A stretch of 64,000 nucleotides of DNA from an uncultured virus (IMG/VR IMGVR_UViG_3300025387_000001) (lineage: Duplodnaviria; Heunggongvirae; Uroviricota; Caudoviricetes): the IMG/VR virus record IMGVR_UViG_3300025387_000001. One strand, given 5' to 3'. Position numbers and translations under genes: made by a program. Position 1 is the stretch's first letter. Every line of letters begins with the position of its first letter. This document shows positions 25,152 through 45,345 of this stretch, in pieces. The notes beneath the pieces were generated by a model, which saw only the letters and a program-made list of their open reading frames with translations, did no database searches and was not told the DNA's origin.

Positions 25152-25232
25152 CCTAAATAGATGTAGGTCGCGGAGCGCCAACTCCCACCTACTCTAACGC
25201 TTTTACGGAGCATCAGCATGTCCTATTATATA
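25152..25232. repeat. Conserved structured leader cassette, copy 1
   Basis: CTAAATA..GTAGGT CGC GGAG-CGCCAA-CTCC C ACCTAC TCTAACGCT-TTTACGG-AGCATCAGC ATG. Confidence 0.85.
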
Positions 25233-25805
25233 TACGCCTATTTACGAGAAGATGGTTCACCTTACTATATTGGTAAAGGAAAAGGTCGCCGAGCTTGGCA
25301 TAACCATAATGCTTGTAATGCGAAGCCTCCCAAAGATAAAACTCGTATCATAATAATGGAATCCAACCTTACGGAAGTAGGTTCTCTTGCTTTAGAAAGA
25401 TTTTATATTCGTTGGTATGGAAAAATTTGTGATAATACGGGTGTTCTTAGAAATAAATCCGATGGCGGAGAAGGTGGTGTAATAAATTCTGGATGTTTCA
25501 GAAAAGGGCAATCTCCAGTATTCAAAGGTATGAAAATGCCTATACTATCAAAAAAGAAAAAAGAATATTGGGAAAAATGGAGAAAAGAAAATCCTGATTA
25601 TAGAAAAAAATGGAAAACCTATGAAAAGGTCGGGTATTCCATAGAAGCAAGAGAAAAAAGAGCAGAAGGTGCCAGAATACGTAACAAGATAAATATAAAC
25701 TGTCCTCATTGTGGTAAGTCAGGACAATTGGCAAATATGAAAAGATGGCATTTTGATAATTGTAAGGAATATGATGACTCATCTAGTATTGAAAAATGTA
25801 AATGA
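25218..25805 (+). CDS. GIY-YIG-like homing endonuclease with C-terminal Zn-finger
   Basis: [34 protein letters not shown]...NMKRWHFDNCK. Confidence 0.85.
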   Translation: MSYYIYAYLREDGSPYYIGKGKGRRAWHNHNACNAKPPKDKTRIIIMESNLTEVGSLALERFYIRWYGKICDNTGVLRNKSDGGEGGVINSGCFRKGQSPVFKGMKMPILSKKKKEYWEKWRKENPDYRKKWKTYEKVGYSIEAREKRAEGARIRNKININCPHCGKSGQLANMKRWHFDNCKEYDDSSSIEKCK

Positions 25806-27249
25806 AACCTTCATAAGAATCGAATGTGATGAAGGTATTGCTATGGAACTTTTTGATTCATTCTCATTCCGACCACCTGGATTCCAATTTGTTCCAGCCT
25901 ATAAACAGAAATTATGGTCTGGTTATATTCATTTATTTCAATTAAAAAATAAACAAATATATCGTGGCCTTGCTCCACAGGTAATGAAGTGGATCAAGGA
26001 AAGAGGTTATACATATGAGTATGAGGATGAGGACTTAGATACATCATTCTCCTTAGAAGAGGCTAAAGAATATGTCGAAATACTCAATCCTAAACACCTT
26101 CCTCGTGACTATCAGATGGATGCTTTCGTTCATGCTATTCGTTCTAAACGTCGCATTGTGTTGTCTCCTACTGGTTCCGGCAAGTCTCTTCTTTTATACC
26201 TTGTTTGCAATTATTTGCTCAAACAAGGGAAACGAGGCCTTCTCATTGTTCCTAGGTCCGCACTAGTAGAACAAATGTTCTCCGACTTCCAAGACTATTC
26301 TACTAAGAATGGTAAGGATATGTTCAAGTATTGTTGGAGAGTATATTCAGGTAAAGATAAAAACTCTGAACACCCCATTATGATATCCACCTGGCAGTCT
26401 TTGTTTAGGATGCCTAAAGAATATTTTGAGCAGTTTGATTATGTAATATGTGACGAAGTTCACCAAGCACAGGCCAAGGCTCTATCAGATATCCTTTCCA
26501 AATGTACCAAAGCAGAATACCGACTCGGTGTAACAGGTACACTTTCTGGTGCTAAAGCACATGAATGGGTATTGATGGGATTATTCGGTCAACTATATAA
26601 GGCCACCACATCAAAAGAATTGATGGAGAAGAAACAACTAGCAGAACTAACCATCAAGTGTCTCTTGTTGAAATATAGTGAAGAAGAATGTCACTATATG
26701 AAATCGGCAACCTATCAGGAAGAACTTGAATACATTATTTCCAATACTAGTCGTAATAAGTTTATATGTAATCTTGTCCTCTCTTTAGAAGGCAATACCT
26801 TATTACTGTTTAATTTTGTAGAGAAGCATGGCACCGTCCTCCACGACATGCTAAATAAGAAAGTCAAGGACGGCCGTAAGGTCTTTTTTATTCATGGAGG
26901 AACTGATGTCGAAGACAGAGAACAAATACGCAGGGTCGTCGAGAACGAACGTGATGCTATTATTGTTGGGTCCGTTGGTGTTCTTAGCACTGGTACTAAT
27001 ATTGTGGCCTTGGACAACATCGTCTTTGCATCTCCTTCCAAATCCAAAATCCGTAACCTTCAGTCCATTGGTCGCGGACTCCGTGTTTCTGCAACGAAAA
27101 AATCCGCCACCTTATTTGATATCGCCGATGATTTTACCTACAAAAAACGCGAAAATTTCACTCTAAAGCATTTTTTAGAGAGGTTAAAAACCTATAGTGA
27201 AGAACACTTTAGGTTCCGTATATACAAAATTGACATGAAGGATAAGTGA
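25771..27249 (+). CDS. uvsW: DNA helicase UvsW
   Basis: SPTGSGKS, DEVH, TGT, QSIGRGLR. Confidence 0.95.
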   Translation: MMTHLVLKNVNETFIRIECDEGIAMELFDSFSFRPPGFQFVPAYKQKLWSGYIHLFQLKNKQIYRGLAPQVMKWIKERGYTYEYEDEDLDTSFSLEEAKEYVEILNPKHLPRDYQMDAFVHAIRSKRRIVLSPTGSGKSLLLYLVCNYLLKQGKRGLLIVPRSALVEQMFSDFQDYSTKNGKDMFKYCWRVYSGKDKNSEHPIMISTWQSLFRMPKEYFEQFDYVICDEVHQAQAKALSDILSKCTKAEYRLGVTGTLSGAKAHEWVLMGLFGQLYKATTSKELMEKKQLAELTIKCLLLKYSEEECHYMKSATYQEELEYIISNTSRNKFICNLVLSLEGNTLLLFNFVEKHGTVLHDMLNKKVKDGRKVFFIHGGTDVEDREQIRRVVENERDAIIVGSVGVLSTGTNIVALDNIVFASPSKSKIRNLQSIGRGLRVSATKKSATLFDIADDFTYKKRENFTLKHFLERLKTYSEEHFRFRIYKIDMKDK

Positions 27250-27250
27250 A

Positions 27251-27652
27251 ATGGAAAATCAATCAATCGCCAAGTTCATCCGTCTAAAGACCGGTGATGA
27301 TATAATTGCCGAGGCCTTTGAGACAGGTGATGATACTGGTGATTATATCACGGTAATCAATCCACTCAAGGCTATGTATGTTCCAGCAACAGCAACAGGA
27401 TATTTACAGATAGCATTTATGCCTTGGGTTTATCCTCGGATATGTGATCAACAGGAATTCAACATCAAAAGGGAAGAAGTTCTTCTTTACCAAGATGTTA
27501 CTGATAATATGAATGAGTATTATTGGGAAAGTGTAGATCATTACCTTGCCGCTAAACGTGAAAAAGTAGAAGAAATACAAGAAGAAAAAATTGATGAAGA
27601 AACAATGGAAGAGTTATTGGAAGAAATCCGAAAAGGAAGGGTTATGCACTAA
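27251..27652 (+). CDS. Conserved T4-like hypothetical protein downstream of uvsW
   Basis: FIRLKTGDDIIA...FMPWV pattern. Confidence 0.6.
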   Translation: MENQSIAKFIRLKTGDDIIAEAFETGDDTGDYITVINPLKAMYVPATATGYLQIAFMPWVYPRICDQQEFNIKREEVLLYQDVTDNMNEYYWESVDHYLAAKREKVEEIQEEKIDEETMEELLEEIRKGRVMH

Positions 27653-27906
27653 TGGACAAGAACAAATACCTAGACTTGGATGGATCGGATGATTTTGGTT
27701 TTTCTTTTGGTGAGGAAACAGACCTTACACCTATTACCAACGAGGTAGAGGATCTAAAGCAAAGATTACAGGCCGTCCGTAAGATATATCTTCCTCTACT
27801 GGAAAACCTAGCAAAGAACGACGACCAACCCATTATCAAATGGCCTAATCGCGGTCCGGTCTTAAAGAAGCATATGGATAAGTTAAAGAAACTTACCGAT
27901 GTCTAA
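27652..27906 (+). CDS. Conserved phage hypothetical protein
   Basis: DFGFSF...PLLENLAKN...IKWPNR. Confidence 0.6.
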   Translation: MDKNKYLDLDGSDDFGFSFGEETDLTPITNEVEDLKQRLQAVRKIYLPLLENLAKNDDQPIIKWPNRGPVLKKHMDKLKKLTDV

Positions 27907-27979
27907 AGCCCATGCTTCGCATGGACTCGCTTCGCTCGTCTTGAGCAACTGGTTATATTTGGTGGTGGATGCGGAGCAC

Positions 27980-28009
27980 ATTATACACACAGATTAGGAA
28001 CCTTGTCAA
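27980..28009 (-). promoter_or_regulatory. Sigma70-type promoter on the minus strand with no downstream ORF
   Basis: Minus strand reads TTGACA-18 nt-TATAAT, with a T/A-tract upstream. Confidence 0.65.
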
Positions 28010-28039
28010 GCCCCTTTTTTCATAAAAAATAAAAAAATA

Positions 28040-28122
28040 CTAAATAATAATTGTAGGTCGCGGTTGGGGAACCCACCTACTCTAACACTCGGCAAGGAGT
28101 ATCAGCTATGTTCTATATTTAT
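28040..28122. repeat. Conserved structured leader cassette, copy 2
   Basis: CTAAATA..GTAGGT CGC GGTT-GGGG-AACC C ACCTAC TCTAACACTC-GGCAAG-GAGTATCAGC T ATG. Confidence 0.85.
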
Positions 28123-28596
28123 GCTTATCTAAGACAAGACGGAACTCCATATTACATTGGTAAAGGTAAAGAAAATCGTGCATGGTCTAAGCACGATAGA
28201 ATAAGATTGCCTAATGATGATAGAATTATTATAATGGAATCAAATTTAACAGAAATAGGATCCTTGGCTTTAGAGAGATTCTATATACGGTGGTATGGTA
28301 GAAAAGATAATGGAACAGGAATACTAAGAAATCTTACAAATGGTGGTGATGGTGTAGAAGGTAAAAGGGGAAAACAACGAAATCCTAATACATCAAACAT
28401 AACTAAATTATTGATAGAAAGAAATAAAAATAGATCCTATTTGTGGGAAATAACTTTTCCTGATGGACATAAAGAAATTATTAAAAATTTGGAACAATTC
28501 TGTTTTTGTCATAATTTACAAAGTTCAGGCTTGACAAGAGTGGCAAAAGGTGATAGGATTCATCATAAAAATTACAAAGCGAGAAAAATATTATGA
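28108..28596 (+). CDS. GIY-YIG-like homing endonuclease
   Basis: [47 protein letters not shown]. Confidence 0.85.
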
Positions 28597-29171
28597 CGGT
28601 AAAGAAAAAACGCAATCACTATGTAGATAACGAGAGGTTCTTAGCAGAGATTGTTGAGTATAAGAAGCAAGTGGTTATTGCCAAAGAACAAGGCCTTGAT
28701 AAACCACGGGTATCGGAATATATTGGCAAATGTATTTACTTGATTGCCGAGAACCTTTCGCATAAACCTCGTTTTATGAACTACTCGTTTCGTGATGAGT
28801 TGGTATCAGATGCTATTGAGAACTGTTTCCTATATTTTGATAACTTTAATCCTACCATTTCACAAAATCCTTTTGCTTACTTTACTCAAATCATTTACTA
28901 TGCCTTTCATAGAAGGATTAGTAAAGAAGAAAAAAATCGTTACATTATATACAAAAAATTCCAAGAAAGTGTCCTAGATACATCGGATGCAGCTTTAATG
29001 ATAGATCATGACGATCAGCACTTGATTTCCTCTACGATGTATGATAACCTAAACGAGTTCATAAAGAAGTTCGAGGGTCGTGAAGCGGAAAAGAAAGAGA
29101 AGCGAAAAGCGGCTAAAGAAGGACTAGATAAGTTTTTTGGAGAAGACGATGAAGGAAGAGAACCAGTTTGA
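28593..29171 (+). CDS. gp55: Late-transcription sigma factor gp55
   Basis: [46 protein letters not shown]. Confidence 0.95.
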
Positions 29172-29352
29172 TGTACCTTTCCAGGTCCAGCAGTTATTGT
29201 CGGCCTTGAAGGACAAGAAAGAAAGAGTTCATGTTCGTGGTAACTACCGTATGCGGTTAGATGCCATTAAACGTGCTATTGATACAGCTATCAATGACTA
29301 TGATACGGAAATGGGAACGGCAAATACTTTTAAACGTAGGAAATCGTCATGA
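29149..29352 (+). CDS. Hypothetical protein
   Basis: Short ORF overlapping the gp55 end, SD GGAG. Confidence 0.55.
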   Translation: MKEENQFDVPFQVQQLLSALKDKKERVHVRGNYRMRLDAIKRAIDTAINDYDTEMGTANTFKRRKSS

Positions 29353-29534
29353 CTGATATTGATGACCTAATCAGAGAAGTAGAACAATCCATGGAATGGT
29401 TCTGTGATAAAATCGTAGAACCGGTTCCTCATAGTAAAGAAGATAAAGACAAGGTTTTCCAACGAATGATTACCCTTGGATGGATAAGGCAGAGTGAAGT
29501 TGATACTTATAAAGAACTTACTAAAGAGGATTAA
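29349..29534 (+). CDS. Hypothetical protein
   Basis: ATGA-coupled short ORF. Confidence 0.5.
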   Translation: MTDIDDLIREVEQSMEWFCDKIVEPVPHSKEDKDKVFQRMITLGWIRQSEVDTYKELTKED

Positions 29535-29554
29535 ATGTTGAAAATCTAGGATTA

Positions 29555-29633
29555 CTAAATAGGTATTGTAGGTCGCGGACGGCCATCCCACCTACTCTAA
29601 TACTGTTTAGGAGTATCAGCATGACTATTTATT
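29555..29633. repeat. Conserved structured leader cassette, copy 3
   Basis: CTAAATA..GTAGGT CGC GGA-CGGCCA-TCC C ACCTAC TCTAATACT-GTTTAGG-AGTATCAGC ATGACTATTTA. Confidence 0.85.
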
Positions 29634-30139
29634 GTCCTCTATCCGAAGCACTTGGTATTAATTATAATACAAGTTCTGAATATGACACTGTATATGATAA
29701 TATATACGAACATATAATGTGTCGTATACCTGGATTTCCACATGATGAAATATCCAAAAAACTCATTTCCGAAAAAACAAAAGAATACTGGTCTTCATAT
29801 GAAGGACAGAAAAAGAAACTACGCCTTATAGAATGGAATCGTAAAACAAAATCAGAAGTTATGAAAAGAACTTGGAAAGAAAAACCGGAAAGTTTATATA
29901 GAGGCGGCCGGAAAAAAGGTTCTAAAGATTTGGAAAAAAGAAAAGAATCCGTTAGGAGAAAGCCTAGACAAATATTTGCGGATGGTGTAATATATAAAAA
30001 TATACACGAAGCATCAAAAGGATGTAATATATCAGTATCAGGTGTGAAAAAACGTTGTCAACACAATATTTATGGATGGAGATATATTAGTGGCGAAGAT
30101 AGCTCTTTTAACAGACACACATGCCGGTGTTCGGAATGA
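29621..30139 (+). CDS. NUMOD3/NUMOD1-type DNA-binding protein without a recognisable nuclease domain
   Basis: GFPHDEISKKLISE and DGVIYKNIHEASKGCNISVSGVKKRC; no GIY-YIG or HNH motif seen. Confidence 0.65.
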   Translation: MTIYCPLSEALGINYNTSSEYDTVYDNIYEHIMCRIPGFPHDEISKKLISEKTKEYWSSYEGQKKKLRLIEWNRKTKSEVMKRTWKEKPESLYRGGRKKGSKDLEKRKESVRRKPRQIFADGVIYKNIHEASKGCNISVSGVKKRCQHNIYGWRYISGEDSSFNRHTCRCSE

Positions 30140-31166
30140 TAACCCGGCGTTTCAGGATTATCAAAAGCGTTGTTTTGATTGGTTCTTCAGTCATATTGAC
30201 GCTATGGGCATTAGGTATGTTATACACCTTGGCGACATTTATGACCGCAGAAAATACATCAACTTCACCTCAGCAAGAAGATGCCGAGAAGATTTCCTTG
30301 ACCCGTTAGAAGATAGGTCAATAGAAACACATATTATACAGGGAAATCACGACTCATATCACAAGAATACCCACGAAGTAAATGCTCTAGATGAATTGGT
30401 TGTTAACCGTTATCAGTTCATTCATACCTATTCACTTCCTGAGTTGATCAATATAGATGGCCTTGATATACAGATCATGCCTTGGATCACAGATTCTAAC
30501 CGTGAACAGGCTATGGATGTTATCAGTCAACCACGGGCCGAGGTTCTTATGGGTCACCTAGAACTAAACGGTTTCACTATGCATAGAGGTTTGATATCAG
30601 ACCATGGGCTTGATCGTGTTACTTTTGATAAGTTTGATAAAGTTTACTCTGGGCATTATCATCATCGTTCCACTATTGGTAATGTATCTTATATCGGTGC
30701 TTTTGCTGAATATACCTGGCACGACTATGCCGATCCTCGTGGTTTCTCTGTGTTTGATACTGACACTAGAGAAATAGAGTTTATACAGAATCCTTATAAG
30801 ATGTTCCGTCTTGCTAAGTATGATGATGTGACCAATCCTGAGATTGTAGAAAAAATCCAAAACACGGACTTTTCCAAGTATAAGAATACTTATGTAAAGT
30901 TGATTGTAGTAAACAAGTCTAATCCTTATGCCTTTGATCTTCTCTTTGACTCCATCTATAAGGCAGGCCCTTTAGATATTACCGTTGTAGAAGATCCTTC
31001 GGTATTGCTTGAGAATGAAGATATGGACTCGGTTGATGAAGCAGAAGATACCTCCACAATCCTTTCCAAGTATATTGATGGGTTGACTTTGCCGGTGGAA
31101 TCTGCTAGAATGAAATCATTCATGTTAGACGTTTACAAAGAGTCATTGCAGGTAGAGACCATATGA
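30090..31166 (+). CDS. gp47: Recombination endonuclease subunit gp47 (Mre11/SbcD-like)
   Basis: TDTHAG, HLGDIYD, GNHD, GHLEL, SGHYH; GTG start after GGAG. Confidence 0.95.
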   Translation: MAKIALLTDTHAGVRNDNPAFQDYQKRCFDWFFSHIDAMGIRYVIHLGDIYDRRKYINFTSARRCREDFLDPLEDRSIETHIIQGNHDSYHKNTHEVNALDELVVNRYQFIHTYSLPELINIDGLDIQIMPWITDSNREQAMDVISQPRAEVLMGHLELNGFTMHRGLISDHGLDRVTFDKFDKVYSGHYHHRSTIGNVSYIGAFAEYTWHDYADPRGFSVFDTDTREIEFIQNPYKMFRLAKYDDVTNPEIVEKIQNTDFSKYKNTYVKLIVVNKSNPYAFDLLFDSIYKAGPLDITVVEDPSVLLENEDMDSVDEAEDTSTILSKYIDGLTLPVESARMKSFMLDVYKESLQVETI

Positions 31167-32884
31167 TTACCTTTCATAATGTAAAGTGGCGAAACTTTCT
31201 TTCGGCTGGTAACAACTGGACCGAGTTGGAGTTAGATACACACAAGAATACCTTAATCATGGGACACAATGGGTCAGGTAAATCCACATTTCTGGACGCC
31301 TTGACCTTTGTGTTGTTTGGTAAACCTTTTCGTAAGGTCAACAAAGGTAATGTCGTAAACTCTATCAATGGTAAGAACTGTGAGGTGGAGATTGAGTTTT
31401 CTGTTTCAAACAAACGGTACAAGGTTATTCGTGGTGCGAAGCCAAACATCTTCGAGATTTATTGTGAAGGTAAAATGGTCAACCAGGATGCAGCGGCCAA
31501 GGACTATCAAGGGTATCTAGAGAAGCATATTCTAAAGATGAACTTTAAGTCCTTTACACAGGTAGTTATTCTTGGTTCTGCATCGTTTGTACCTTTCATG
31601 CAACTATCACCTGGTGACCGTAGAACGGTTATTGAAGACCTGTTGGACATTCAAATCTTTTCTTCTATGTCTAATGTGGTCAAGAACAGACTACAAATCA
31701 ACCGTGAAGGACTAGAGAAGAATAGGATTACTTTAACTAGTAAAAATGAAAATAAAACTTACATTGAGCAGACTTTAGAGTCCTTAAAGTCAAATAATGA
31801 AACTAAACTTTCACTTTTACGAGAGAAAGAACAGGAACTAAAAGATAGTTTAGTTTCCGAGCAATCAATCATTTCCGACCTAGAGAAGAAAAGAGATGAA
31901 CTCCTTGAACAAGGTATTGATACCTCGGTACTAAGGACAAAGTATAGTAAGTTGGTCGGTTTCAAGGCCAAGATGGAGGGAAACATTGACCGTATTCACA
32001 AAGATAATACATTCTTTGAGTCAAATGATACTTGTCCCACTTGTAGGCAGGGTATCGATGAGACTTTCAAAAAAGAAACGATTGGATCTAACCAAAGTAA
32101 GATTGCTGAAATTAATGAAGGACTAAATAAGGCTGACGAACAGATTAGTGCCGTCCTGGAAGAAATAGAGAAGATTGATGAAGTTCTCCAACGCCTTAAT
32201 GGAGTTAAGATGGATCTTACATCTAGTAGGTCTTCCTATAAGCATATTGATAATAATCTGTCTCAAATTATGGTTCAGATTGAAACGTTCGCACTATCTG
32301 ACAAAACTACCCAAGAGTCGGAACGACAACTCGTTCAAGTCCAACATGATATTTCCTCCCTCGAAGAAGAAAAGAAGGCCCTTCTAGATGAACGCCAATA
32401 TGTGGACTTGGCCACTACACTACTCAAAGATGGTGGAATCAAGACAAAAATCATTAAACAGTATCTACCTATCATTAATAAACATATCAATAAGTACCTC
32501 GCTAAACTTGGTTTTTTTGTCAACTTTAATATTAATGAGTCATTCGAGGAATCAATCAAGTCAAGATACCGAGACGAGTTCTCCTACCACAACTTCTCTG
32601 AAGGTGAGAAGTTAAGAATAGACTTGGCCATTCTCCTTACATGGAGGCAGATTGCCAAGATGAAAAACTCCGTGAATGTAAATATACTTGTGTTTGATGA
32701 GATCCTTGACCGTGCTATGGACGCCAGTGGTGTAGACGAATTTATTCGTATAATGTGGGATATGGGTGATAATGGTTCTAATATATTTGTTATCTCACAT
32801 AAAGACGGAATGATAGATAGATTCCAGAGAACAGTAAAATTTCAGAAAGTTAAAAATTTTAGTGTATTAGAAAAGGAAAATTAA
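31163..32884 (+). CDS. gp46: Recombination endonuclease subunit gp46 (Rad50/SbcC-like)
   Basis: [13 protein letters not shown] hook, [19 protein letters not shown]. Confidence 0.96.
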
Positions 32885-33447
32885 TGTTTTATGTTTATGC
32901 ATATTTAAGGGAGGATGGAACACCTTACTATATTGGTAAAGGTAAAAAACTCCGTGCGTGGACTAAAGATATTAAAAGGTATAAACATATATCACTTCCT
33001 AAAAATAATAATCGTATAGTTATAATGGAATCCAATCTTACGGAAGTTGGCGCACTGGCGTTAGAAAGGTTCTATATTCGTTGGTATGGACGTAAGGATA
33101 ATGGAACAGGTATATTGAGAAATTTAACAGATGGTGGAGACGGTGTTTCTGGTCAAATACAATCCGAAGAAACTAAAGAAAAAAGAAGACAAAAACATTT
33201 AGGACAAAAAAGAATAAATGTAGATAACTTTAAAGGTCCTAAGTCAAAAGAACATGCAAAAAATATAGGAAAATCTCACGCCAAAACATATTCTGTTATT
33301 GATCCCATAGGAAATAAAATAATCATACACAACATGAGGCAATATTGTTTAGATAATGAATTACATCAAGGTAATATGATACAGGTTGCCAAAGGTAATA
33401 GAATAAGTCATAAAGGATACAAATCTGTCTTGACAAAAGACTTATAA
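32884..33447 (+). CDS. GIY-YIG-like homing endonuclease (no leader cassette)
   Basis: [37 protein letters not shown]; paralogue of 25218 and 28108. Confidence 0.85.
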
Positions 33448-33458: not shown

Positions 33459-33464
33459 ACCATC

Positions 33465-34351: not shown

Positions 34352-34761
34352 AAAGAGATTGTGAAGGATGCACTAAATGTTGTGAAGGTTGGTTATGGAG
34401 TGAGGCCTACGGACACAAATTTTGGCCAGGTCGTCCTTGTCATTTTATGTGTGAAAAAGGTTGTTCTATCTATGAGAATAGACCTGTAGATCCTTGTAAA
34501 AATTTTAAATGTGAATGGTTAACAAATTCGGATATACCTGAATGGATGAAACCTAGTGTTTCTAACGTTATCATTTGCAAAAGAATAGAAAATAATAACG
34601 AACTATTGGAGTTTACCGAGGTATTGGAGTTTATCGAGGCTGGTTCTAGATTAGATCCTCGTGTTCTTTCCTGGATTTTTATGAACTTTGTAAATAAAAA
34701 AATTGGTGATGTGAAATATCAACTCGACGGAGGTTGGAACTACATATATGGCGAAAAGTGA
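34342..34761 (+). CDS. YkgJ-like Cys-cluster (CxxCxxCC) protein
   Basis: CEGCTKCC, PCHF, CSIYENRP..PCKNFKCEW. Confidence 0.75.
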   Translation: MEIKRDCEGCTKCCEGWLWSEAYGHKFWPGRPCHFMCEKGCSIYENRPVDPCKNFKCEWLTNSDIPEWMKPSVSNVIICKRIENNNELLEFTEVLEFIEAGSRLDPRVLSWIFMNFVNKKIGDVKYQLDGGWNYIYGEK

Positions 34762-36007
34762 TGAAGAACTAAAGGATGTTGAACGCCAGTGGGATGAATT
34801 TCAATCCACATTTACCGCACCTGAGGCCCTTAACGATGAGCAACTAAAAAAGGCCGTCGTTGAGGACCTAACAAATGTTTCGGCAATGACCGTAGAGGAA
34901 TATACCCTCTATCAAAAGTGGTTAGAAATCCATATCAAGTATCCTACACATGAAGGTCTGTTTGGTACTTGTCTTCAAGACGGTGAACAAGAACTTGCAA
35001 TCAATAAGATCAAAGATAATATCTGGATTCCTAATGATCCTATGGACTATGCGAAACTAAAACCTGTCCTTGTTTATACTCCTGAATTTGATATGCAGGA
35101 CACTTGGAATACTATTCGCAACTTTACTTCCACAATGAAGAATAACTCCAACATTGGCCGTAATCTATCTTATATCGTTCAAGATGATGTTACCGGAAAG
35201 TACCTAGGGGTAATTTGTATCTCTTCTGATTTCCTAGACTTGACTCCACGAGATAACCATATTGGATGGTCCCGTGAGGTAAAGACTAATCAAGGTATGA
35301 TTAATCACACGGCCATTGGTTCTACTATCGTACCACTACAACCACTTGGTTATAACTATACAGGTGGAAAACTTTTAGCATTACTTTGTCTTTGTGATAA
35401 GGTACAACAGGATTGGAAAAAACAATATGGTGATACACTCATTGGCGTCACTACTACATCACTATACGGTAAGTCTAAGACTAACCAGTTATCGCAATAT
35501 GATCGCTTACAACATTGGAAGAAAATGGGCTTCACATCAGGCTCTGTCTCTTATGAAGCAAGAAAACCTACTGTAAAGTTAATGCTAGATTGGTTGAAGA
35601 AGAACCATACCCGTAAATACTTTGAATGGTATGTGGCCAAGAACCTTGACGGTATGCCTTACAAAAGAGACCACAAGAACCGTTCCTATACATTCATGTA
35701 TTCCCAACTGAATGTTCCTAAAGAACTTATCCGTTCTGAACACGCCCGTGGTATCTATTTTAGTCCTTTGTATAACAACACCAACGAGTTTCTTCGTAAG
35801 GAAATTACCGAAGATAAACTTGCCAAGGCGTTTGATTCCAGTTATGATGCTCTGGTAAATCTATGGAAAGACAAGTATGCGGGAAAACGTATTCGTTCTT
35901 TGGTGGAACAAAACCGTGTTTCCAAAGAAACTCTTTTCTATGATGACCTAATCTATATGGATTGGGAAGAGACAAAGGCCAAATACCTAACGCAGGTGGG
36001 ACGATAA
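34748..36007 (+). CDS. DruA/DUF4338-like protein
   Basis: GRNLSYIVQD..GKYLGVI, RDNHIGW, PLGYNYTGGKLLALL, TTTSLYG..SQYDRL. Confidence 0.65.
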   Translation: MAKSDEELKDVERQWDEFQSTFTAPEALNDEQLKKAVVEDLTNVSAMTVEEYTLYQKWLEIHIKYPTHEGLFGTCLQDGEQELAINKIKDNIWIPNDPMDYAKLKPVLVYTPEFDMQDTWNTIRNFTSTMKNNSNIGRNLSYIVQDDVTGKYLGVICISSDFLDLTPRDNHIGWSREVKTNQGMINHTAIGSTIVPLQPLGYNYTGGKLLALLCLCDKVQQDWKKQYGDTLIGVTTTSLYGKSKTNQLSQYDRLQHWKKMGFTSGSVSYEARKPTVKLMLDWLKKNHTRKYFEWYVAKNLDGMPYKRDHKNRSYTFMYSQLNVPKELIRSEHARGIYFSPLYNNTNEFLRKEITEDKLAKAFDSSYDALVNLWKDKYAGKRIRSLVEQNRVSKETLFYDDLIYMDWEETKAKYLTQVGR

Positions 36008-39254: not shown

Positions 39255-39257
39255 TGG

Positions 39258-39286: not shown

Positions 39287-39323
39287 CCATATATAATGAG
39301 AAATCTTGAAAGGAATAGTTCTA

Positions 39324-40574
39324 ATGGCTAAGAAGATTGACCGCACCGAGTTCCTCGATAAAATCCGTTTCGAGTTCGGTGCAATCCGTTCAATCACCCG
39401 TCCGCAAGTCCTCCAAATCTGTGAGAAATACGGACTCGACAAACCTAACTGGATACTAAATGACGTATCCCGTAAACTTGGTCGTGGTATCTATTCTCTT
39501 CCTGAACACGGAACTTCTGGTGTAACATTAGGTGACTTAAAAGAAATTAATAAGTCCTGGAGAAAAAAAGAAACAAAAACACCAGCACCTAAAGCGGCAC
39601 CTTCTCCTGCTGTTGCCGTTGCTATGGTGGCACCTTCGGTTGTTTCTACTAACGCCGAGGTTTCACTTGTTCCTGAAAAGGCACTCGGTTACGTTCCATT
39701 CGGCCATTTCACGGACGTCCGTGCTATCATCAAATCCAAAAAGTTCTATCCAACATATATCACCGGCCTTTCTGGCAACGGTAAAACTATGATGGTGGAA
39801 CAGGTATGTGCCCAAGAAAAGAGAGAATGTGTCCGTGTTAATATCACTATTGAGACCGACGAGGACGACCTTATCGGTGGTTTCCGTCTTATCAATGGCG
39901 AGACCGTATGGCAAGACGGTCCTGTTATTACTGCTATGTCTCGCGGTGCCTTACTATTACTGGACGAGGTTGACCTCGGTTCCAACAAGCTTATGTGCCT
40001 CCAGCCAGTCCTCGAAGGTAAAGCAATTTACCTAAAAAAGACTAACCGTGTGGTCCATCCTGCGGCAGGTTTCAACATTGTTGCCACTGCCAATACTAAA
40101 GGCAAAGGTTCTGATGATGGCCGCTTTATCGGCACCAACGTTATGAATGAAGCGTTCCTTGAACGTTTTAGCATCACAATGGAACAAGAATATCCTGCCG
40201 CTAAGGTTGAGACAAAAATCCTCAACAATGTTTTACAGGCTTCTGGTATCACCGCAACGGAGTTTGTTGATAAGTTGGTTACTTGGGCAGATGTTATCCG
40301 TAAGTCCTTCTTCGAGGGTGCTTTATCTGAAATCATCTCAACCCGCCGTCTTGTCCATATCTGCGAGGCATATTCCATCTTCAACCAAAACAAGGTAAAA
40401 GCTATTGAGTTATGCCTCAACCGTTTTGACGTTGATACAAAGAATGCCTTTTTAGAGTTGTATCGTAAAGTGGATGAAACCGCCGATCCTGTTGTTGGTG
40501 CTACAGGTGCTACTGGTGAAGTTGAGTATCCGGGTGCCGTTGGTGCTAATGGTGCCTCTGGTCCTACTTTCTAA
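39324..40574 (+). CDS. CobS-like/MoxR-type AAA+ ATPase
   Basis: GLSGNGKT, TDEDDLIGG, LLLDEVD, ATANTKG, NEAFLERF, STRRL. Confidence 0.92.
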   Translation: MAKKIDRTEFLDKIRFEFGAIRSITRPQVLQICEKYGLDKPNWILNDVSRKLGRGIYSLPEHGTSGVTLGDLKEINKSWRKKETKTPAPKAAPSPAVAVAMVAPSVVSTNAEVSLVPEKALGYVPFGHFTDVRAIIKSKKFYPTYITGLSGNGKTMMVEQVCAQEKRECVRVNITIETDEDDLIGGFRLINGETVWQDGPVITAMSRGALLLLDEVDLGSNKLMCLQPVLEGKAIYLKKTNRVVHPAAGFNIVATANTKGKGSDDGRFIGTNVMNEAFLERFSITMEQEYPAAKVETKILNNVLQASGITATEFVDKLVTWADVIRKSFFEGALSEIISTRRLVHICEAYSIFNQNKVKAIELCLNRFDVDTKNAFLELYRKVDETADPVVGATGATGEVEYPGAVGANGASGPTF

Positions 40575-40586
40575 AATAGAGGAATA

Positions 40587-40663
40587 CTAAATAGACATGT
40601 AGGTCACGGACGGCAATCCCACCTACTCTAATCTCGGCTAGGAGACCAGCATGTCTATTTATA
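40587..40663. repeat. Conserved structured leader cassette, copy 4
   Basis: CTAAATAGACAT GTAGGT CAC GGA-CGGCAA-TCC C ACCTAC TCTAATCTC-GGCTAG-GAGACCAGC ATGTCTATTTA. Confidence 0.88.
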
Positions 40664-41229
40664 CCCCTTACACCTACCTTATCGGTTGGTCCATCCACAA
40701 TAAATGGTATTACGGAGCAGAATACGGGAGTGTGGTAAAAGTTGCCAACCCTTCTAATCTTTGGAATACCTACTTCACTTCTTCCTCAGAGGTAAAAAAG
40801 TTTAGACAAGAATACGGAGAACCTGATGTTATAGAGATCCGTCGGACATTCATAACAGAAAAAGAATGTCGAGAATGGGAAGATAAAGTTCTAACCAAAT
40901 TGGATGTTATCAAGTCAGACCGTTGGTTGAATAAGAGACAAGGAAGTTCTTGTAAGTTTATTTGTGAAGGACATTCTGAGGAGTCAAAAGAAAAAATGCG
41001 AGGCCCTAGAGGACCTCAAAGAGAGGAATGGATAACAAATAGATTTGCTAACCGAGTTCCTGCTAAAACAACGGCCCTAAAAGGTCGCCCTTCACCTATC
41101 AAAGGAAAGACCATAAAGAAAAGAGAAAAGTTATTGTGTCCTGTATGTAATAGAATGATTGATGTATCAAACTATGTGAAATGGAAACATGGAGAAAGTT
41201 GTAATGAAAACAAGAGAAATCATTTCTAA
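40651..41229 (+). CDS. Putative homing endonuclease (divergent GIY-YIG type) with NUMOD3 and Zn-finger
   Basis: PYTYLIGW...WYYG, YFTSS, WEDKVL, WLN, HSEESKEKM, CPVC. Confidence 0.75.
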   Translation: MSIYTPYTYLIGWSIHNKWYYGAEYGSVVKVANPSNLWNTYFTSSSEVKKFRQEYGEPDVIEIRRTFITEKECREWEDKVLTKLDVIKSDRWLNKRQGSSCKFICEGHSEESKEKMRGPRGPQREEWITNRFANRVPAKTTALKGRPSPIKGKTIKKREKLLCPVCNRMIDVSNYVKWKHGESCNENKRNHF

Positions 41230-41623
41230 ACTGGAAGAAGTTGTAACAACTTTGCGAAACGAGAATGTAGAAGAAAATCCTGTCCAAGAGGACGAATGGG
41301 AATCTTCTCGTCGGACAAGGTTTTATACCAGTAAAAAGGATAGATATATTGTCCGACACGGATATGGAGATAATAAAACATATTTTACTTGCTATGAAGA
41401 AGCAAGACAGTGGATTGATAAAGATATGGCTGAGTATTCTAGAATACTTGGTGAACTTTCTAGTGAAAGTTCTATTCCTGAATATGCTATTGATGTTGAG
41501 GAAACCTATACTATTGAGTTCGTCAAACCGAGAAAAAAGAAGGCTGTAAAATCTGGATATTTCGGACAACAAAGGGCTCCTGATGGTGAGTATAAAGGTG
41601 TCACTGATGTTTGGGTAGAATAA
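41204..41623 (+). CDS. Hypothetical protein
   Basis: ORF overlapping the endonuclease end, SD GGAG. Confidence 0.5.
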   Translation: MKTREIISKLEEVVTTLRNENVEENPVQEDEWESSRRTRFYTSKKDRYIVRHGYGDNKTYFTCYEEARQWIDKDMAEYSRILGELSSESSIPEYAIDVEETYTIEFVKPRKKKAVKSGYFGQQRAPDGEYKGVTDVWVE

Positions 41624-41631
41624 AATAGAGA

Positions 41632-41660
41632 TTGACAATACACCAATACCCTGCTATAAT
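41632..41660 (+). promoter_or_regulatory. Consensus sigma70 promoter upstream of the tRNA-like gene
   Basis: TTGACA-17 nt-TATAAT with extended TG. Confidence 0.8.
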
Positions 41661-41694
41661 ATAAAAATCGTCGGTATTATAGCAGGGTATAAAT

Positions 41695-41766
41695 GCGGAG
41701 ATAGTATAAAGGTATTACCCAGGTCCCCCCTGGAATCTGTGTTTCGATTACACAGTCTCCGCTCCA
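41695..41766 (+). tRNA. tRNA-Gly-like RNA with non-canonical anticodon and T arms
   Basis: Acceptor GCGGAGA/TCTCCGC, discriminator T, encoded CCA; D arm GTA-TAAAGGTAT-TAC; CCAGG-TCCCC-CCTGG; CTGTGT-TTCGATT-ACACAG. Confidence 0.7.
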
Positions 41767-41803
41767 AAACGACGAAACTTAACTATGAAAAAGGAAATAT
41801 ATT

Positions 41804-42025
41804 ATGGCTACACCACGTAAGACACAAATCGAAAAGATCGAAAACGTCCTCCTGAAGAACACGAAATCACCTGGTATCACAGCGGATTCCATTGCTAAGT
41901 TGGCCCGCGTTCCTCGTGAGAATGTTGGCAAGCGTGTTTCCGACCTTCGTGAGTATTACAACATTTACACCAACTACCGCAATGTTGACGGTAAGCGCAC
42001 AGCTTTCTATCGCCTTGCCCAGTAA
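41804..42025 (+). CDS. Small winged-HTH DNA-binding protein
   Basis: ITADSIAKLARVPRENVGKRVSDLR...FYRL. Confidence 0.65.
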   Translation: MATPRKTQIEKIENVLLKNTKSPGITADSIAKLARVPRENVGKRVSDLREYYNIYTNYRNVDGKRTAFYRLAQ

Positions 42026-42050
42026 TACTTTCTAAAAAGTATGCTATATA

Positions 42051-42080
42051 GGGATGTGGCACCTCGCCACGTCCCTTTTT
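42051..42080 (+). terminator. Intrinsic terminator
   Basis: GGGATGTGGC-ACCTC-GCCACGTCCC-TTTTT. Confidence 0.8.
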
Positions 42081-42099
42081 GTTTATGTGAAAGAATAAT

Positions 42100-42675
42100 A
42101 TGATTGAAAATATTTGGTCAACTCCTATATATCATAATATGATAGATAATGTAGATGAAATCAATAACGAAATTTATCAAAATACAAAGTCTCTACAATA
42201 TATTGATGTGCTGCCTGACTTAGGAGAAAAAACTCATAAAATTTCTAATACTTTTGACGAAAATTTTCTACAAAAATATAATTTAATAAAAACTGAAAAA
42301 ATGATTATCGAAAATGTGAAAAAATACTTTTCTGAGATATATTATGAATATGATTTGAATTATAATATTAATAAAATTGAGTCTTGGATGACATCATTTT
42401 GTCGTAATCAATATTCAATATCACATGTTCACGGTACTAGCAATGTTTCTGGTGTATATTATTATAAATCAAATGGTGAAGATGGTAATATAATTTTTCA
42501 AAACTTTGATTCTTTGTCTTTTTCTAAATGTTTTGTGCATTATAGACAATCTTGGATTCATAAACCTTGTGTTGGAAAAATTTTATTATTTCCATCGTGT
42601 ATCTTACATTATGTTACTCAAAATAACACAGATACAGAAAGAAATAGTCTATCGTTCAATATTTTTTTAAAATAA
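42100..42675 (+). CDS. Putative 2OG-Fe(II) oxygenase (TIGR02466-like)
   Basis: SW, HVH..SNVSGVYY, LFPSCILHYV..N...RNSLSFN. Confidence 0.82.
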   Translation: MIENIWSTPIYHNMIDNVDEINNEIYQNTKSLQYIDVLPDLGEKTHKISNTFDENFLQKYNLIKTEKMIIENVKKYFSEIYYEYDLNYNINKIESWMTSFCRNQYSISHVHGTSNVSGVYYYKSNGEDGNIIFQNFDSLSFSKCFVHYRQSWIHKPCVGKILLFPSCILHYVTQNNTDTERNSLSFNIFLK

Positions 42676-42689
42676 AGTGAGGGTATAAT

Positions 42690-43496
42690 ATGGAACTTAA
42701 AATTTCAACTGAAGAATTGAGACAAAAAAAACTATTCGTTGCTACGCCTTGCTACGGTGGTCAGTGTTTTGGTTTATATGCTAAGGCGTGTTTGGATCTT
42801 CAAGCGACTTGTATTCAATATGGCATGGAATGCCGCTTCTCATTTATCTTTAATGAGTCCCTAATCACTCGCGCCCGCAATTATCTTGTTGATGAATTCC
42901 TCCGTTCAGGTTGCACTCATCTATTATTCATCGACTCCGACATTCAGTTCAATCCACAGGACGTCCTTGCTCTATTGGCATTGGATAAAGATATCATTGG
43001 CGGTCCATATCCAAAGAAGTCAATCAACTGGTCTAACATTGTTAATGCCGTAAAACGTAATGCTGATAATAAAGACTTTAATCCTGGTATGCTTGATGGT
43101 GTTACAGGTGACTTCGTATTCAATCCAGTTCCAGGTACCACATCATTCAAGGTAACTGAACCAGTTGAGGTTATGGAGATTGGTACAGGGTTTATGATGG
43201 TAAAGCGTGAAGTATTTGAGAAGTATGCGGAAGAATATCCACACCTTCATTATAAGCCAGACCACGTTGGTCAGGCCAACTTTGATGGTTCACGATACAT
43301 TCATGCCTTCTTTGATACAGTCATTGATCCACAATCACATCGTTATCTTTCTGAGGATTATATGTTCTGTCAAAATGCCCGCGCCATCGGTCTCCAAGTA
43401 TGGCTATGTCCTTGGATGAAGACGACGCATGTTGGCACATATGGGTTCCAGGGTGACCTTCCTGCCGTTGCAGCATTGAGCGGTAATCTGAGGTGA
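42690..43496 (+). CDS. GT-A fold glycosyltransferase-like protein
   Basis: FVATPCYGG, ESLITRARN, FIDSDI (DxD), GTGFMM, LSEDYMFC. Confidence 0.75.
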   Translation: MELKISTEELRQKKLFVATPCYGGQCFGLYAKACLDLQATCIQYGMECRFSFIFNESLITRARNYLVDEFLRSGCTHLLFIDSDIQFNPQDVLALLALDKDIIGGPYPKKSINWSNIVNAVKRNADNKDFNPGMLDGVTGDFVFNPVPGTTSFKVTEPVEVMEIGTGFMMVKREVFEKYAEEYPHLHYKPDHVGQANFDGSRYIHAFFDTVIDPQSHRYLSEDYMFCQNARAIGLQVWLCPWMKTTHVGTYGFQGDLPAVAALSGNLR

Positions 43497-44092
43497 TAAT
43501 CGGCGTTGTCGGTTACATTGGTTCCGGCAAAGGCACAGTAGGTGACATTCTCGAAAGAGATTATGGTTACAAAAAGTTTGCCTTTGCCGATGCTCTTAAA
43601 GACGCCGTGGCCTCCATCTTCGTGTGGCCACGGGGTCTTTTGGAAGGTGACACTAACGCTTCACGGGCCTTCCGCGAACGTGTTGACCCTTGGTGGTCCC
43701 ATAAGTTTGGTTATGAAGTCACACCTCGCCTCATTCTACAAAAAATGGGTAGTGAGGCATGCCGAGACAATATCGCAGATAACATCTGGATTGCCGCATT
43801 AGAGAAACGTATTCACGGATATGAAGATGTGGTTATATCCGATACTCGTTTTCCTAATGAAATAGATTTTATTCGGAGTGCCGGCGGCAAGATTATCCGC
43901 GTAAAACGAGGTGATGACCCATCTCCAGAAGAACTTTCCAAGATGCATATATCAGAGACGGCATGGAATAACTATGTTCCGGATTTTATTCTTCACAATG
44001 AAGGAACAGTGAATGATCTAAAAGAAAATATAAAAACCATCTTGACACAAAACGATAAAGATGCTAGTATATATTACAGTTTGACAATATGA
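43493..44092 (+). CDS. Deoxynucleoside monophosphate kinase (gp1-like)
   Basis: GYIGSGKGT, FADALKD, PRLILQKMGSE, SDTRFPNE, HISE. Confidence 0.9.
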   Translation: MIIGVVGYIGSGKGTVGDILERDYGYKKFAFADALKDAVASIFVWPRGLLEGDTNASRAFRERVDPWWSHKFGYEVTPRLILQKMGSEACRDNIADNIWIAALEKRIHGYEDVVISDTRFPNEIDFIRSAGGKIIRVKRGDDPSPEELSKMHISETAWNNYVPDFILHNEGTVNDLKENIKTILTQNDKDASIYYSLTI

Positions 44093-44102
44093 GGAGTATA
44101 AT

Positions 44103-44759
44103 ATGAAGTTTAGTGAAAATACCTTAACGGTTCTAAAGAACTTTGCCAATATCAATAGCGGTGTTGTTCTTAATCCTGGCAAGGTTCAGAAAACAATGTC
44201 ATCGGAACGTTCCATTCTCCTCGAGGCAACTCTTGAGGATGATATCCCACAACAGTTTGGCATCTATGATCTGAATAACTTTCTAGGTAACATTACAACC
44301 CTACGCAATCCTGAAATCACATTTAGCACCGACTCCGTGTCTATGACTGAAGGTGACTTTACCTTGACGTATCTTCCTTGTTCACCTAATCTTATCATTA
44401 CACCACCTGCCGACAAGGAACTATCAATCAAGAATGTTGATGTATCTTTTACTTTGTTAAATGCTTCTATCTCACGGTTGCTAAAGTTGGCCTCGATGAA
44501 CAACCTTCCACACCTATCGGTAGTTGGTAAGGATGGTGCCCTATTGCTAAAGATCCATGAGAAAGCAAATGACACGTCCAACCACGGTTCTACAAAGATT
44601 GGTGATTATGCTGGTAAGGACTTTATCGCAACCTTCAAGAGCGAGAACCTGAAACTAATCCCTGATGACTATGATGTGGAACTCCAGATTGGTGCCTTTG
44701 CCAAGTTCGTGAACAAGGCAGGTAATCTTAAATACTTCATTGCTCAGGAAACAAAATAA
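44103..44759 (+). CDS. gp45: Sliding clamp gp45
   Basis: MKFSENTLTVLKNFANIN, FGIYDLNNFL, ENLKLIPDDYDV, YFIA. Confidence 0.95.
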   Translation: MKFSENTLTVLKNFANINSGVVLNPGKVQKTMSSERSILLEATLEDDIPQQFGIYDLNNFLGNITTLRNPEITFSTDSVSMTEGDFTLTYLPCSPNLIITPPADKELSIKNVDVSFTLLNASISRLLKLASMNNLPHLSVVGKDGALLLKIHEKANDTSNHGSTKIGDYAGKDFIATFKSENLKLIPDDYDVELQIGAFAKFVNKAGNLKYFIAQETK

Positions 44760-44956
44760 TGAGTAAGAAAATCTATGATGTTCTGTTAATGGCATTTACA
44801 GGTGCCACTATTGTGGCATTTGTTTATGTGATTGCTAACAATGTTTCTCTGCATGAACTGTATATCCAAAAATGTAAAGACGGCGGCGGTGTTGCCGTTG
44901 TAGCAGCAAATGGATATGTTTGTATTAACCCTGGCGCAATTATTGAGGTGGACTAA
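44759..44956 (+). CDS. Small membrane protein
   Basis: One hydrophobic helix, C...C. Confidence 0.5.
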   Translation: MSKKIYDVLLMAFTGATIVAFVYVIANNVSLHELYIQKCKDGGGVAVVAANGYVCINPGAIIEVD

Positions 44957-45252
44957 TGAGTATGATTGGACATAACCAACAGCAAAGGTCGGTTCAAGGT
45001 CTTACAGATGAAGATCGTAAGATCCTCCGTAAGGCAGTTATGGAGATGAATGACTCCATGACCCGTGTTGGTGCCGAACGTGAACTACAAAAAGAAACCA
45101 CAAATGAGGTTGCCGATAAACTCGGTATTGATAAGAAGTTGTTCCGCCGTATGTCGAGAGCATACTTCCGTGCCAACTTCAAAGAAGAGGTTCAAGAGAA
45201 TACGGACTTTGAAGAGTTTTATACCACTGTTATGGAAAAGACGGCGAGTTGA
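44956..45252 (+). CDS. DsbA-like phage dsDNA-binding protein
   Basis: EMNDSMTRVGAERELQKE...LGIDKKLFRRMSRAYF. Confidence 0.7.
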   Translation: MSMIGHNQQQRSVQGLTDEDRKILRKAVMEMNDSMTRVGAERELQKETTNEVADKLGIDKKLFRRMSRAYFRANFKEEVQENTDFEEFYTTVMEKTAS

Positions 45253-45265
45253 AAACTTCGGAATG

Positions 45266-45345
45266 CTAAATAGTTGTAGGCCACGGTGTTACCAGCACCT
45301 GCCTACTCTAACGCTAACTGGAGCGCCAGCCTATGACTATTTATC
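45266..45345. repeat. Conserved structured leader cassette, copy 5
   Basis: CTAAATA..GTAGGC CAC GGTG-TTACCAG-CACC T GCCTAC TCTAACGCT-AACTGG-AGCGCCAGC CT ATGACTATTTA. Confidence 0.85.

Follow-up and report, generated by a model that had tools for sequence, protein, structure and literature searches.

What kind of element is it that stands, in nearly the same form, before five endonuclease-type genes of different families in one phage genome? The question is raised by a 64,000-nucleotide stretch of DNA from an uncultured tailed virus (IMG/VR record IMGVR_UViG_3300025387_000001), the whole of which is here called the window. A preliminary description, made from the letters of this DNA alone, had proposed a structured leader of about 70-80 nucleotides (nt), and had considered a regulatory switch, a protein-binding or guide-like RNA, a single-stranded DNA (ssDNA) module and a mobile expression cassette as possible roles for it. 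Large phages have homing endonucleases as their main selfish genes, and to our knowledge the restraint of these nucleases is known only from a handful of T4 examples. The answer favored here, which we consider somewhat probable, is that the element is a portable control cassette of free-standing homing endonuclease genes, in which two late promoters that face each other would give rise to the nuclease mRNA and to a structured antisense RNA that restrains the nuclease.

Five copies of one cassette and the covariation of its helices

When the window is searched with the core pattern GTAGGYCRCGG-N3-20-CCYRCCTACTCTAA, five matches are found, all on the plus strand (at 25163, 28053, 29568, 40599 and 45276), while the mean number of matches in 100 dinucleotide shuffles is 0. 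The full consensus can be parsed in all five copies, with starts at 25153, 28040, 29555, 40587 and 45266, in the order CTAAATA, N3-6, GTAGGY, CRC, GG-hairpin-CC, Y, RCCTAC, TCTAA, a hairpin with the Shine-Dalgarno sequence (SD), YCAGC, N0-2 and ATG. The two-tier hairpin that begins with GTAGGY is denoted P1, and the SD hairpin P2. A covariance model (R1), built from 92 related sequences, assigns the five copies 62.9-79.6 bits and the next match in the window 16.4 bits (filters off, both strands). The five-copy consensus element of the preliminary description is thereby borne out, with the parts that follow.

25153..25229, plus strand: cassette copy 1, R1 79.6 bits; late-promoter box 25153-25159, P1 25163-25192, TCTAA 25193-25197, P2 core with the SD 25198-25212, TCAGC 25213-25217, ATG 25218
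28040..28122, plus strand: cassette copy 2, R1 62.9 bits; late box 28040-28046, P1 28053-28080, TCTAA 28081-28085, P2 core 28086-28101, TCAGC 28102-28106, ATG 28108
29555..29632, plus strand: cassette copy 3, R1 78.6 bits; late box 29555-29561, P1 29568-29595, TCTAA 29596-29600, P2 core 29601-29615, TCAGC 29616-29620, ATG 29621
40587..40662, plus strand: cassette copy 4, R1 77.1 bits; late box 40587-40593, P1 40599-40626, TCTAA 40627-40631, P2 core 40632-40645, CCAGC 40646-40650, ATG 40651
45266..45344, plus strand: cassette copy 5, R1 74.6 bits; late box 45266-45272, P1 45276-45306 (GTAGGC/GCCTAC variant), TCTAA 45307-45311, P2 core 45312-45325, CCAGC 45326-45330, ATG 45333

A similar layout with a different sequence is seen on the plus strand at 50000-50089, 5' of an Hsp20-family gene (50074-50631), where a two-tier hairpin GTGGAT...ATCCAC is followed by TTTAA, an SD hairpin and ATG. 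With an R1 score of 16.2 bits (E 0.2) this leader was not counted as a sixth copy, and it may be a distant relative or a case of convergence.

The claim that all helices of the element covary can be judged from many more sequences than the window holds. Set A2 consists of 100 sequences, retrieved by a 3'-anchored pattern that leaves the stems unconstrained, and in this set compensatory, i.e., two-sided, changes occur in 13 of the 14 pairs. Its cells are paired to 94.2%, against 67.0% after shuffling, and none of 500 shuffles reaches the observed value, while slid registers are paired to only 26-49%. In set A1 (92 sequences), 96.1% of the cells are paired, against 83.5% when shuffled. The outer stem of P1, which is invariant within the window, is compensated elsewhere (GTAGTT/AACTAC, GTCCGT/ACGGAC, GTGAGT/ACTCAC, GTATGT/ACATAC), and GAGAGC stems occur as well. 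The covariation is thus confirmed, and more strongly than five copies could show. From the compensatory changes follows that selection acts on pairing and not on sequence identity.

The cassettes lie in a portion of a T4-like phage genome, with nearly all genes of the window on the plus strand. There, CTAAATA occurs 22 times, each time on the plus strand, and some of these boxes stand directly 5' of the genes for the gp21 protease and the gp22 scaffold protein. The preliminary description had counted CTAAATA as a part of the cassette. It is indeed present in five of five copies, but it is merely the late promoter of the phage: the reported late promoter of T4-like cyanophages is NATAAATA, close to TATAAATA of T4 (PMC2984593). 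Of 92 cassettes scanned, 88 have an AAATA-containing box within 14 nt on the 5' side of P1; 38 of these boxes are TATAAATA, 38 are NCTAAATA and 11 are other NATAAATA variants, with a spacer to P1 of 3 nt in 50 and of 5 nt in 34.

The strand that fits the fold and the inverted promoter box

To see which strand the fold belongs to, consider the mismatches in its helices: an A·C mismatch on the gene strand is a G·U pair on the opposite strand. In the paired columns of A2, read on the gene strand, A·C or C·A occurs 66 times and G·U 7 times, the corresponding numbers in A1 being 36 and 8, and those for the outer helix of P1 in A2 being 18 and 0. TCTAA and YCAGC, which had been described as fixed, and the middle base of the CRC bulge turn out to be paired. 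TCTAA and YCAGC form four extra pairs that adjoin P2, paired to 99.4% on the opposite strand and to 68.0% on the gene strand, and one of these pairs alternates between A-T (26), A·C (12) and T-A (4). The middle base of CRC pairs with the single Y across the helix, as A-T, G-C and A·C in 38, 25 and 29 cases in A1, in 10, 66 and 24 cases in A2, and in 10, 26 and 8 cases in a third set, A3, while G·T occurs 0, 0 and 1 times, respectively. Both pairings are clean only opposite the gene. When all 19 pairs are counted together in 43 intact copies that whole-record scans had yielded, the opposite strand reaches 98.8% pairing and the gene strand 88.4%. RNAalifold gives -21.9 for the opposite strand and -15.2 for the gene strand in A3, and -21.1 and -13.6 in A2, and, sequence by sequence, the opposite strand has the lower minimum free energy (MFE) in 94 of 100 and 91 of 92 cases. 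The conserved fold fits the strand opposite the gene better than the gene strand. From this better overall fit follows that an mRNA leader or switch, one of the roles suggested earlier, is not the best reading of the cassette; with 66 A·C against 7 G·U and with 88.4% against 98.8% of pairs formed, the signature expected of selection for a fold in the mRNA is not what is found.

Codons 2-4 behind the cassette read NNT ATT TAT, which is the reverse complement of a late box, ATAAATA, that faces the first box. In 81 of 88 cassettes codon 2, which specifies at least nine different amino acids, ends in T. At codon 4, TAT is found in 80 cases and TAC in none, when the open reading frames (ORFs) of the window elsewhere have 235 TAT and 84 TAC. 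Codon 3 is ATT, ATA and ATC in 59, 17 and 3 cases against a window baseline of 237, 104 and 164, so that ATC is depleted. The inverted box is conserved at the nucleotide level.

By the spacing rule of T4, a late transcript starts at the sixth base after the late box. In A1, CAGC abuts ATG in 66 of 92 sequences (44 of the 61 with an intact box), which leaves 5 nt between the opposite box and the G of GCUG. This G, where the rule would place the start, is one base before the helix P2', the opposite-strand form of P2. The predicted RNA then has, in order, G, a hairpin of 8-9 base pairs (bp), one A, the hairpin P1' with two single-G bulges, and a U-rich tail: at least five U are found in an 8-nt window that starts 0-2 nt past P1' in 78 of 92, 97 of 100 and 40 of 45 sequences. 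In the window, the inverted box has the canonical spacing of 5 nt in copies 3 and 4 and a spacing of 7 nt in copy 5, and the predicted RNAs are as follows.

29555..29620, minus strand: predicted antisense RNA of copy 3; box complementary to 29626-29631, spacing 5 nt; putative start at the G opposite C29620; P2' of 8 bp, one A, P1' hairpin and a U-rich tail over the complement of the plus-strand box; MFE -18.7 kcal/mol
40587..40650, minus strand: predicted antisense RNA of copy 4; box complementary to 40656-40661, spacing 5 nt; putative start at the G opposite C40650; MFE -20.1 kcal/mol, against -14.9 kcal/mol for the gene strand
45266..45332, minus strand: predicted antisense RNA of copy 5; box complementary to 45338-45343, spacing 7 nt; putative start about 2 nt before GCUG; MFE over 45266-45330 -24.1 kcal/mol, against -21.4 kcal/mol for the gene strand
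28040..28110, minus strand: predicted antisense RNA of copy 2; box displaced by one codon (TATTTA at 28116-28121, i.e., TAAATA on the minus strand); putative start about 4 nt before GCUG; MFE over 28040-28106 -21.8 kcal/mol, against -16.4 kcal/mol for the gene strand

The mechanism that these features suggest has two sides. On the gene strand, a gp55-type late box, [A/C]TAAATA, is followed 3 or 5 nt later by P1, then by P2 with the SD, and then by the start codon and the first codons of a protein that begins M-x-I-Y. On the opposite strand, the ATAAATA box within codons 2-4 would fire toward the first box, and its transcript would begin with the G of GCUG, which is complementary to the conserved CAGC, fold into P2' (8-9 bp, formed by CUGR...UUAG and the P2 core), a linker A and the P1' hairpin, and end, presumably, in a U-rich tail that is the complement of the gene-strand promoter box. 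The whole looks like a compact small-RNA gene of about 65-75 nt with its own terminator. Its product would be fully complementary to the leader of the nuclease mRNA, including the ribosome-binding site, and would most likely lower the translation or the stability of this mRNA, and the converging promoters may, in addition, interfere with one another.

An extension of this mechanism, which we find unlikely and put forward tentatively, is that the opposite-strand transcripts make up a new and widespread family of phage small RNAs that act in trans. Since P1, the junction and the extension of P2 are nearly identical between copies, one RNA could pair with all cassette leaders in the cell. The leaders of a co-infecting phage would then also be targets, and the RNA would serve as a shared brake, or give cross-immunity, among selfish nuclease genes. 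Another possibility is that the invariant G bulges and the G·U pair could serve to attract a dedicated protein or RNase.

A number of observations weigh against the antisense mechanism. In the 31 of 92 A1 cassettes without an intact TATTTA, the ratio of A·C to G·U is 38:2, and in the rest it is 72:6. From this equal asymmetry follows that the signature of the fold is independent of the inverted box, contrary to the mechanism in its simplest form. Much of the asymmetry comes, furthermore, from a few columns, the terminal pair of P2 and an invariant A·C, where other constraints, e.g., the SD sequence, act. The residues I-Y at positions 3-4 are kept also when the Ile codon is ATA or ATC (20 of 88), so that the conservation of the box is partly at the protein level. 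Since the gene-strand promoter box is rich in A, a U-rich tail arises of itself on the other strand. A simple terminator scan of window positions 25000-30000 gave no signal at the minus-strand P1'; its rules require an unbulged stem and a loop of 3-8 nt adjoining a run of T. Among the five copies in the window, copy 1 is without an intact TAAATA box on the minus strand, its codons 2-5 being TCC TAT TAT ATA, and the shifted box of copy 2 is 9 nt away from the G opposite the last C of CAGC. The pattern by which A2 was retrieved fixes CTCTAA, CAGCATG and TATTTAT, so that A2 is uninformative at these positions, and the sequences in the A sets are related, so that their counts overstate the number of independent events.

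Other explanations of the cassette

When the late box and codons 2-4 are seen as two arms of one helix in the mRNA, rather than as two promoters, the cassette becomes a sense leader of the T4 type. In read-through transcripts the late box would pair with codons 2-4 in a helix P0, which together with P1 and P2 would close the initiation region, while transcripts from the late promoter, without the 5' arm, would be translated; the nuclease would then be made late only, and a 5'-terminal P1 would stabilize the mRNA. We regard this as a real though clearly lesser possibility. The design is documented for I-TevI, I-TevII, I-TevIII, segB and mobE of Aeh1 (PMC2988022). The complementarity TAAATA:TATTTA is present in 79-81 of 88 cassettes and extends to 11 of 11 bases in copy 4, and the mean length of the longest helix is 7.2 bp, as compared with 5.5 bp when the 3' arm is shuffled. 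When cognate arms are replaced by non-cognate ones, however, the values remain nearly equal (7.20 and 7.11 bp, -4.30 and -4.00 kcal/mol), from which follows that the arms of P0 covary little. Between the first spacer base and position 2 of codon 2, pairing is seen in 54 of 88 cases against 46.5 after permutation (p 0.007, uncorrected for relatedness), and this is the one position in the flanks formed by the spacer and the second codon where pairing is in excess. Under the spacing rule of T4, the foot of P1 or a base inside it would be the start of the late transcript (spacer of 5 nt in 34 cassettes and of 3 nt in 50). The predicted probability that the region from AUG to +12 is unpaired is 0.43 for read-through transcripts and rises to 0.60 for late ones, a modest gain that goes in this direction in 66 of 88 cassettes. 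The core of P0 consists of six A-U pairs and is weak, and P2 on the gene strand has only 3-5 bp, at about -1.6 to -2.1 kcal/mol. What P0 leaves unexplained is the bias of the mismatches toward A·C rather than G·U, and also the ratio of 36:0 of TAT over TAC in cassettes with a CTAAATA box, where the T in question cannot pair. The classical T4 model is possible, and it may operate as well as the antisense mechanism.

The asymmetry of the mismatches is equally compatible with G·T pairs in DNA, and the cassette could, on this ground, consist of minus-strand ssDNA hairpins in which G·T is tolerated, a site that is recognized or processed in the replication, recombination or movement of the cassette and that loosely resembles IS200/IS605 or REP elements. 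Its movement between gene families and the invariance of the bulged G residues agree with such a site. Hairpins of the REP and IS200/IS605 type have a conserved GTAG at the foot and are associated with Y1/HUH transposases. In the cassette the foot varies (GTCCGT, GTGAGT, GAGAGC), bases 2-4 being T in 86, A in 59 and G in 66 of the 100 A2 sequences with compensated changes, and a Pfam scan of 47 ORFs of the window found no HUH/Y1 transposase domain. Since the GTAG foot is variable with compensation, the analogy with REP elements, raised in the preliminary description, is removed. There is no obvious cause for the exposure of one DNA strand, and the register with promoter box, SD and start codon is always kept, which points to expression signals; an ssDNA site is, by these arguments, most improbable. 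That the cassette is only a patch of homology for the swapping of nuclease genes, with an incidental fold, appears very unlikely as well. The same cassette does precede unrelated genes and occurs in several copies per genome, and PeSL cassettes have been proposed to mediate shuffling of this kind in T4-type phages (PMC2839356, PMC4122927). The compensatory changes in 13 of 14 pairs speak, however, for selection on pairing, and the longest invariant stretches, about 11-14 nt, are short for homologous recombination. Nothing in the analysis points to a guide-like function, another of the roles first suggested.

Genes, range and relation to known systems

The genes behind the five copies, together with a paralogue that lacks the cassette, are the following.

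25218..25805, plus strand: endonuclease-type gene behind copy 1, YxY-YIG type; no Pfam match; phrog_15526 and phrog_10829 (function unknown)
28108..28596, plus strand: endonuclease-type gene behind copy 2, YxY-YIG type; no Pfam match
29621..30139, plus strand: gene behind copy 3; weak match to the I-TevI DNA-binding domain (E 1.2e-4, below the Pfam cut-off), no nuclease domain found with Pfam
40651..41229, plus strand: gene behind copy 4; weak match to a SegE-type GIY-YIG domain (E 7e-4, below the cut-off)
45333..45896, plus strand: HNH_3 endonuclease gene behind copy 5 (PF13392, E 4.6e-11)
32884..33447, plus strand: cassette-less paralogue of the gene at 28108; its start overlaps the stop of a gp46-like gene (TAATG)

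The proteins encoded at 25218 and 28108 are 67% identical. That a close paralogue without cassette begins at 32884 was correctly noted, its product being 51% identical to that of 28108 (E 3e-59). Among 63 complete ORFs behind cassettes, Pfam finds NUMOD3 in 19, GIY-YIG in 13, HNH_3 in 8 and HNH in 3, and 34 of the 63 belong to phrog_314 ('homing endonuclease'), with many HNH phrogs besides. Nearly all these proteins start M-x-I-Y, irrespective of family. The genes are thus, as the preliminary description had it, homing endonucleases of different families (GIY-YIG, HNH, NUMOD-only), and the covariation of the helices, taken together with these many families, upholds its view of a portable, selected module that moves independently of nuclease family.

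Late boxes stand directly before endonuclease- or NUMOD-like ORF starts also at 1653, 8095-8115 and 9468 on the plus strand, as judged by eye (MKVYCMENKLNGKKYVGVT, MGLEKNLSDALGI, MACVYKITRNDGLEYIGIT); these ORFs are without the cassette, so that nuclease-type genes have three kinds of start region here. In the gap just 5' of copy 2, a perfect sigma-70 consensus (12 of 12 bases, TTGACA-18 nt-TATAAT) lies on the minus strand at 28009-27980, directed away from the cassette, in a genome from which minus-strand genes are almost absent.

Pfam matches of window ORFs include UvsY, UvsW, nuclease subunits of the gp47/gp46 type, the gp45 clamp, DsbA, the gp44/gp62 clamp loader, RegA, the gp21 protease, the gp22 scaffold and the gp23 capsid protein, and a clamp-loader protein is about 56% identical to its counterparts in Synechococcus and Prochlorococcus myoviruses. 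When positions 24000-30000 (megablast) and copy 4 (blastn) were compared with 50,697 phage records, no match was found, a result at the level of BLAST that allows for divergent copies in cultured phages. The record nearest to the window (G001, 24.6 kb) has 0 copies of the cassette. Two other features of the window are a 419-residue protein (34748-36007, plus strand) that matches the Druantia DruA family (PF14236, E 1.7e-21), a family of defense-system proteins, here within the replication module of a lytic-type phage, and a sugar-modification cluster (50690-56986, plus strand) with GT2, GT10 fucosyltransferase and GT4 glycosyltransferases, a methyltransferase, a UDP-glucose/GDP-mannose dehydrogenase and an NAD-dependent epimerase.

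In viral contigs, a loosened P1 pattern finds at least 124 loci, 91 of them unique among the matches listed, and the 3'-anchored pattern (CTCTAA...CAGCATGNNTATTTAT) at least 128 loci, with 118 unique sequences among the matches listed, 10 of which have the P1 sequence of the window type. Whole-record scans with R1 of ten large IMG/VR records give 1-13 copies each. The largest number is found in a record of 361 kb with terminal repeats (G008), where the copies fall into two main P1 classes, GTAGTT and GTGAGT, and a record of 349 kb (G007) has 4. The cassette ranges over uncultured T4-like phages related to cyanophages and some jumbo phages, the latter two records showing that it is not limited to phages of about 170-240 kb. 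In a further record (G002), two decayed copies (L141 1501-1583, minus strand, and L142 1501-1584, plus strand; 41.5 and 26.4 bits) have lost the end CAGC-ATG-NNT-ATT-TAT and look like remnants after loss of the nuclease gene. In bacterial and archaeal genomes, the 3'-anchored pattern gives 27 loci, where about 18 are estimated by chance in 596 Gb. Nine of the 27 reach at least 34 bits with R1, most of them on metagenome-bin contigs of 1.5-9 kb. These nine (L294, L304, L307, L312, L313, L315, L316, L319 and L320; 34-84 bits) come from metagenome-assembled genomes (MAGs) labeled Bacteroidetes, Geobacteraceae, Bacteroides, Dechloromonas, Erysipelotrichaceae, Thiobacillus and Nitrosarchaeum. These are probably contigs of phages that were caught up in the binning, and the bin labels therefore carry no host information.

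That the motif is not a recognized one agrees with Rfam 15, where no match was found at the gathering score for the whole window or at E<=10 for copy 4. A full-text literature search, which covered papers outside subscription-only journals, found none that describes the cassette. The cassette is a widespread, undescribed structured element, one conserved control module common to hundreds of nuclease genes of unrelated families in uncultured phages, and its sequence can be used as a tag with which to locate free-standing endonuclease genes, and late promoters too, in phage contigs from metagenomes. If the antisense mechanism is true, it would represent a new and abundant class of phage small RNA, a first case of a regulatory module, and not a gene, as the spreading unit, and a compact regulatory part, made up of two promoters and two hairpins, that is ready for use.

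How does the cassette relate to systems already known? In the T-even phages and Aeh1, the endonuclease genes I-TevI, I-TevII, I-TevIII, segB and mobE have hairpins that sequester the ribosome-binding site, with an embedded late promoter (Edgell, Gibb & Belfort 2010, PMC2988022). The cassette shares with them a late promoter immediately before the endonuclease ORF (in five of five window copies and 88 of 92 relatives), RNA structure around the ribosome site, a promoter box that is one arm of a possible helix, and the apparent purpose of keeping the nuclease low or late. It differs from these gene-specific single hairpins in that a conserved two-hairpin domain recurs across hundreds of genes of several families, that the fold fits the opposite strand, and that a second, facing box lies within the first codons. 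In the 'fractured genes' of marine metagenomes, hairpins and TATAAATA have been found 5' of free-standing endonucleases (Dassa et al. 2009, PMC2677866), and there, too, endonuclease genes of uncultured phages come with their own late promoter, of the T4 type, and with a hairpin whose conserved motifs are complementary. The two are not identical, since the sequences of MEME motifs 1 and 2 (Figure S4 of that paper) differ from the cassette consensus; these motifs form one hairpin over the ribosome site, and an antisense reading is not proposed in the available part of the paper.

An antisense RNA over a homing endonuclease gene of a T4-like cyanophage has been detected experimentally: CfrI of S-PM2, about 225 nt long, lies between psbA and the endonuclease gene F-CphI and also overlaps the end of the upstream gene (Millard et al. 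2010, as reported in PMC2984593, PMC12197685 and PMC5931967). By these reports CfrI resembles the predicted cassette RNA in type and target, and differs from it in being longer, a single case, and tied to psbA. R1 has no match in the whole S-PM2 genome (NC_006820) at E<=10, and there is therefore no detectable homology with the CfrI locus. The PeSL cassettes of T4-type phages (PMC2839356, PMC4122927) are likewise short, repeated and portable modules of a promoter and a stem-loop at gene boundaries. As described, they have an early, sigma-70-type promoter and a terminator-like stem-loop and flank variable genes in general, whereas the present cassette, with the late box [A/C]TAAATA as its promoter, is not one of them: it has late boxes on both strands, includes the ribosome-binding site and the first codons, and is specific to endonuclease genes. 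Control of endonuclease genes by a late promoter and RNA structure is, from these accounts, already known in T4 and Aeh1, and the cassette is a variation on such control. With a late box on each strand around a two-hairpin domain, it most likely yields both the nuclease mRNA and a small antisense RNA that holds the nuclease in check.

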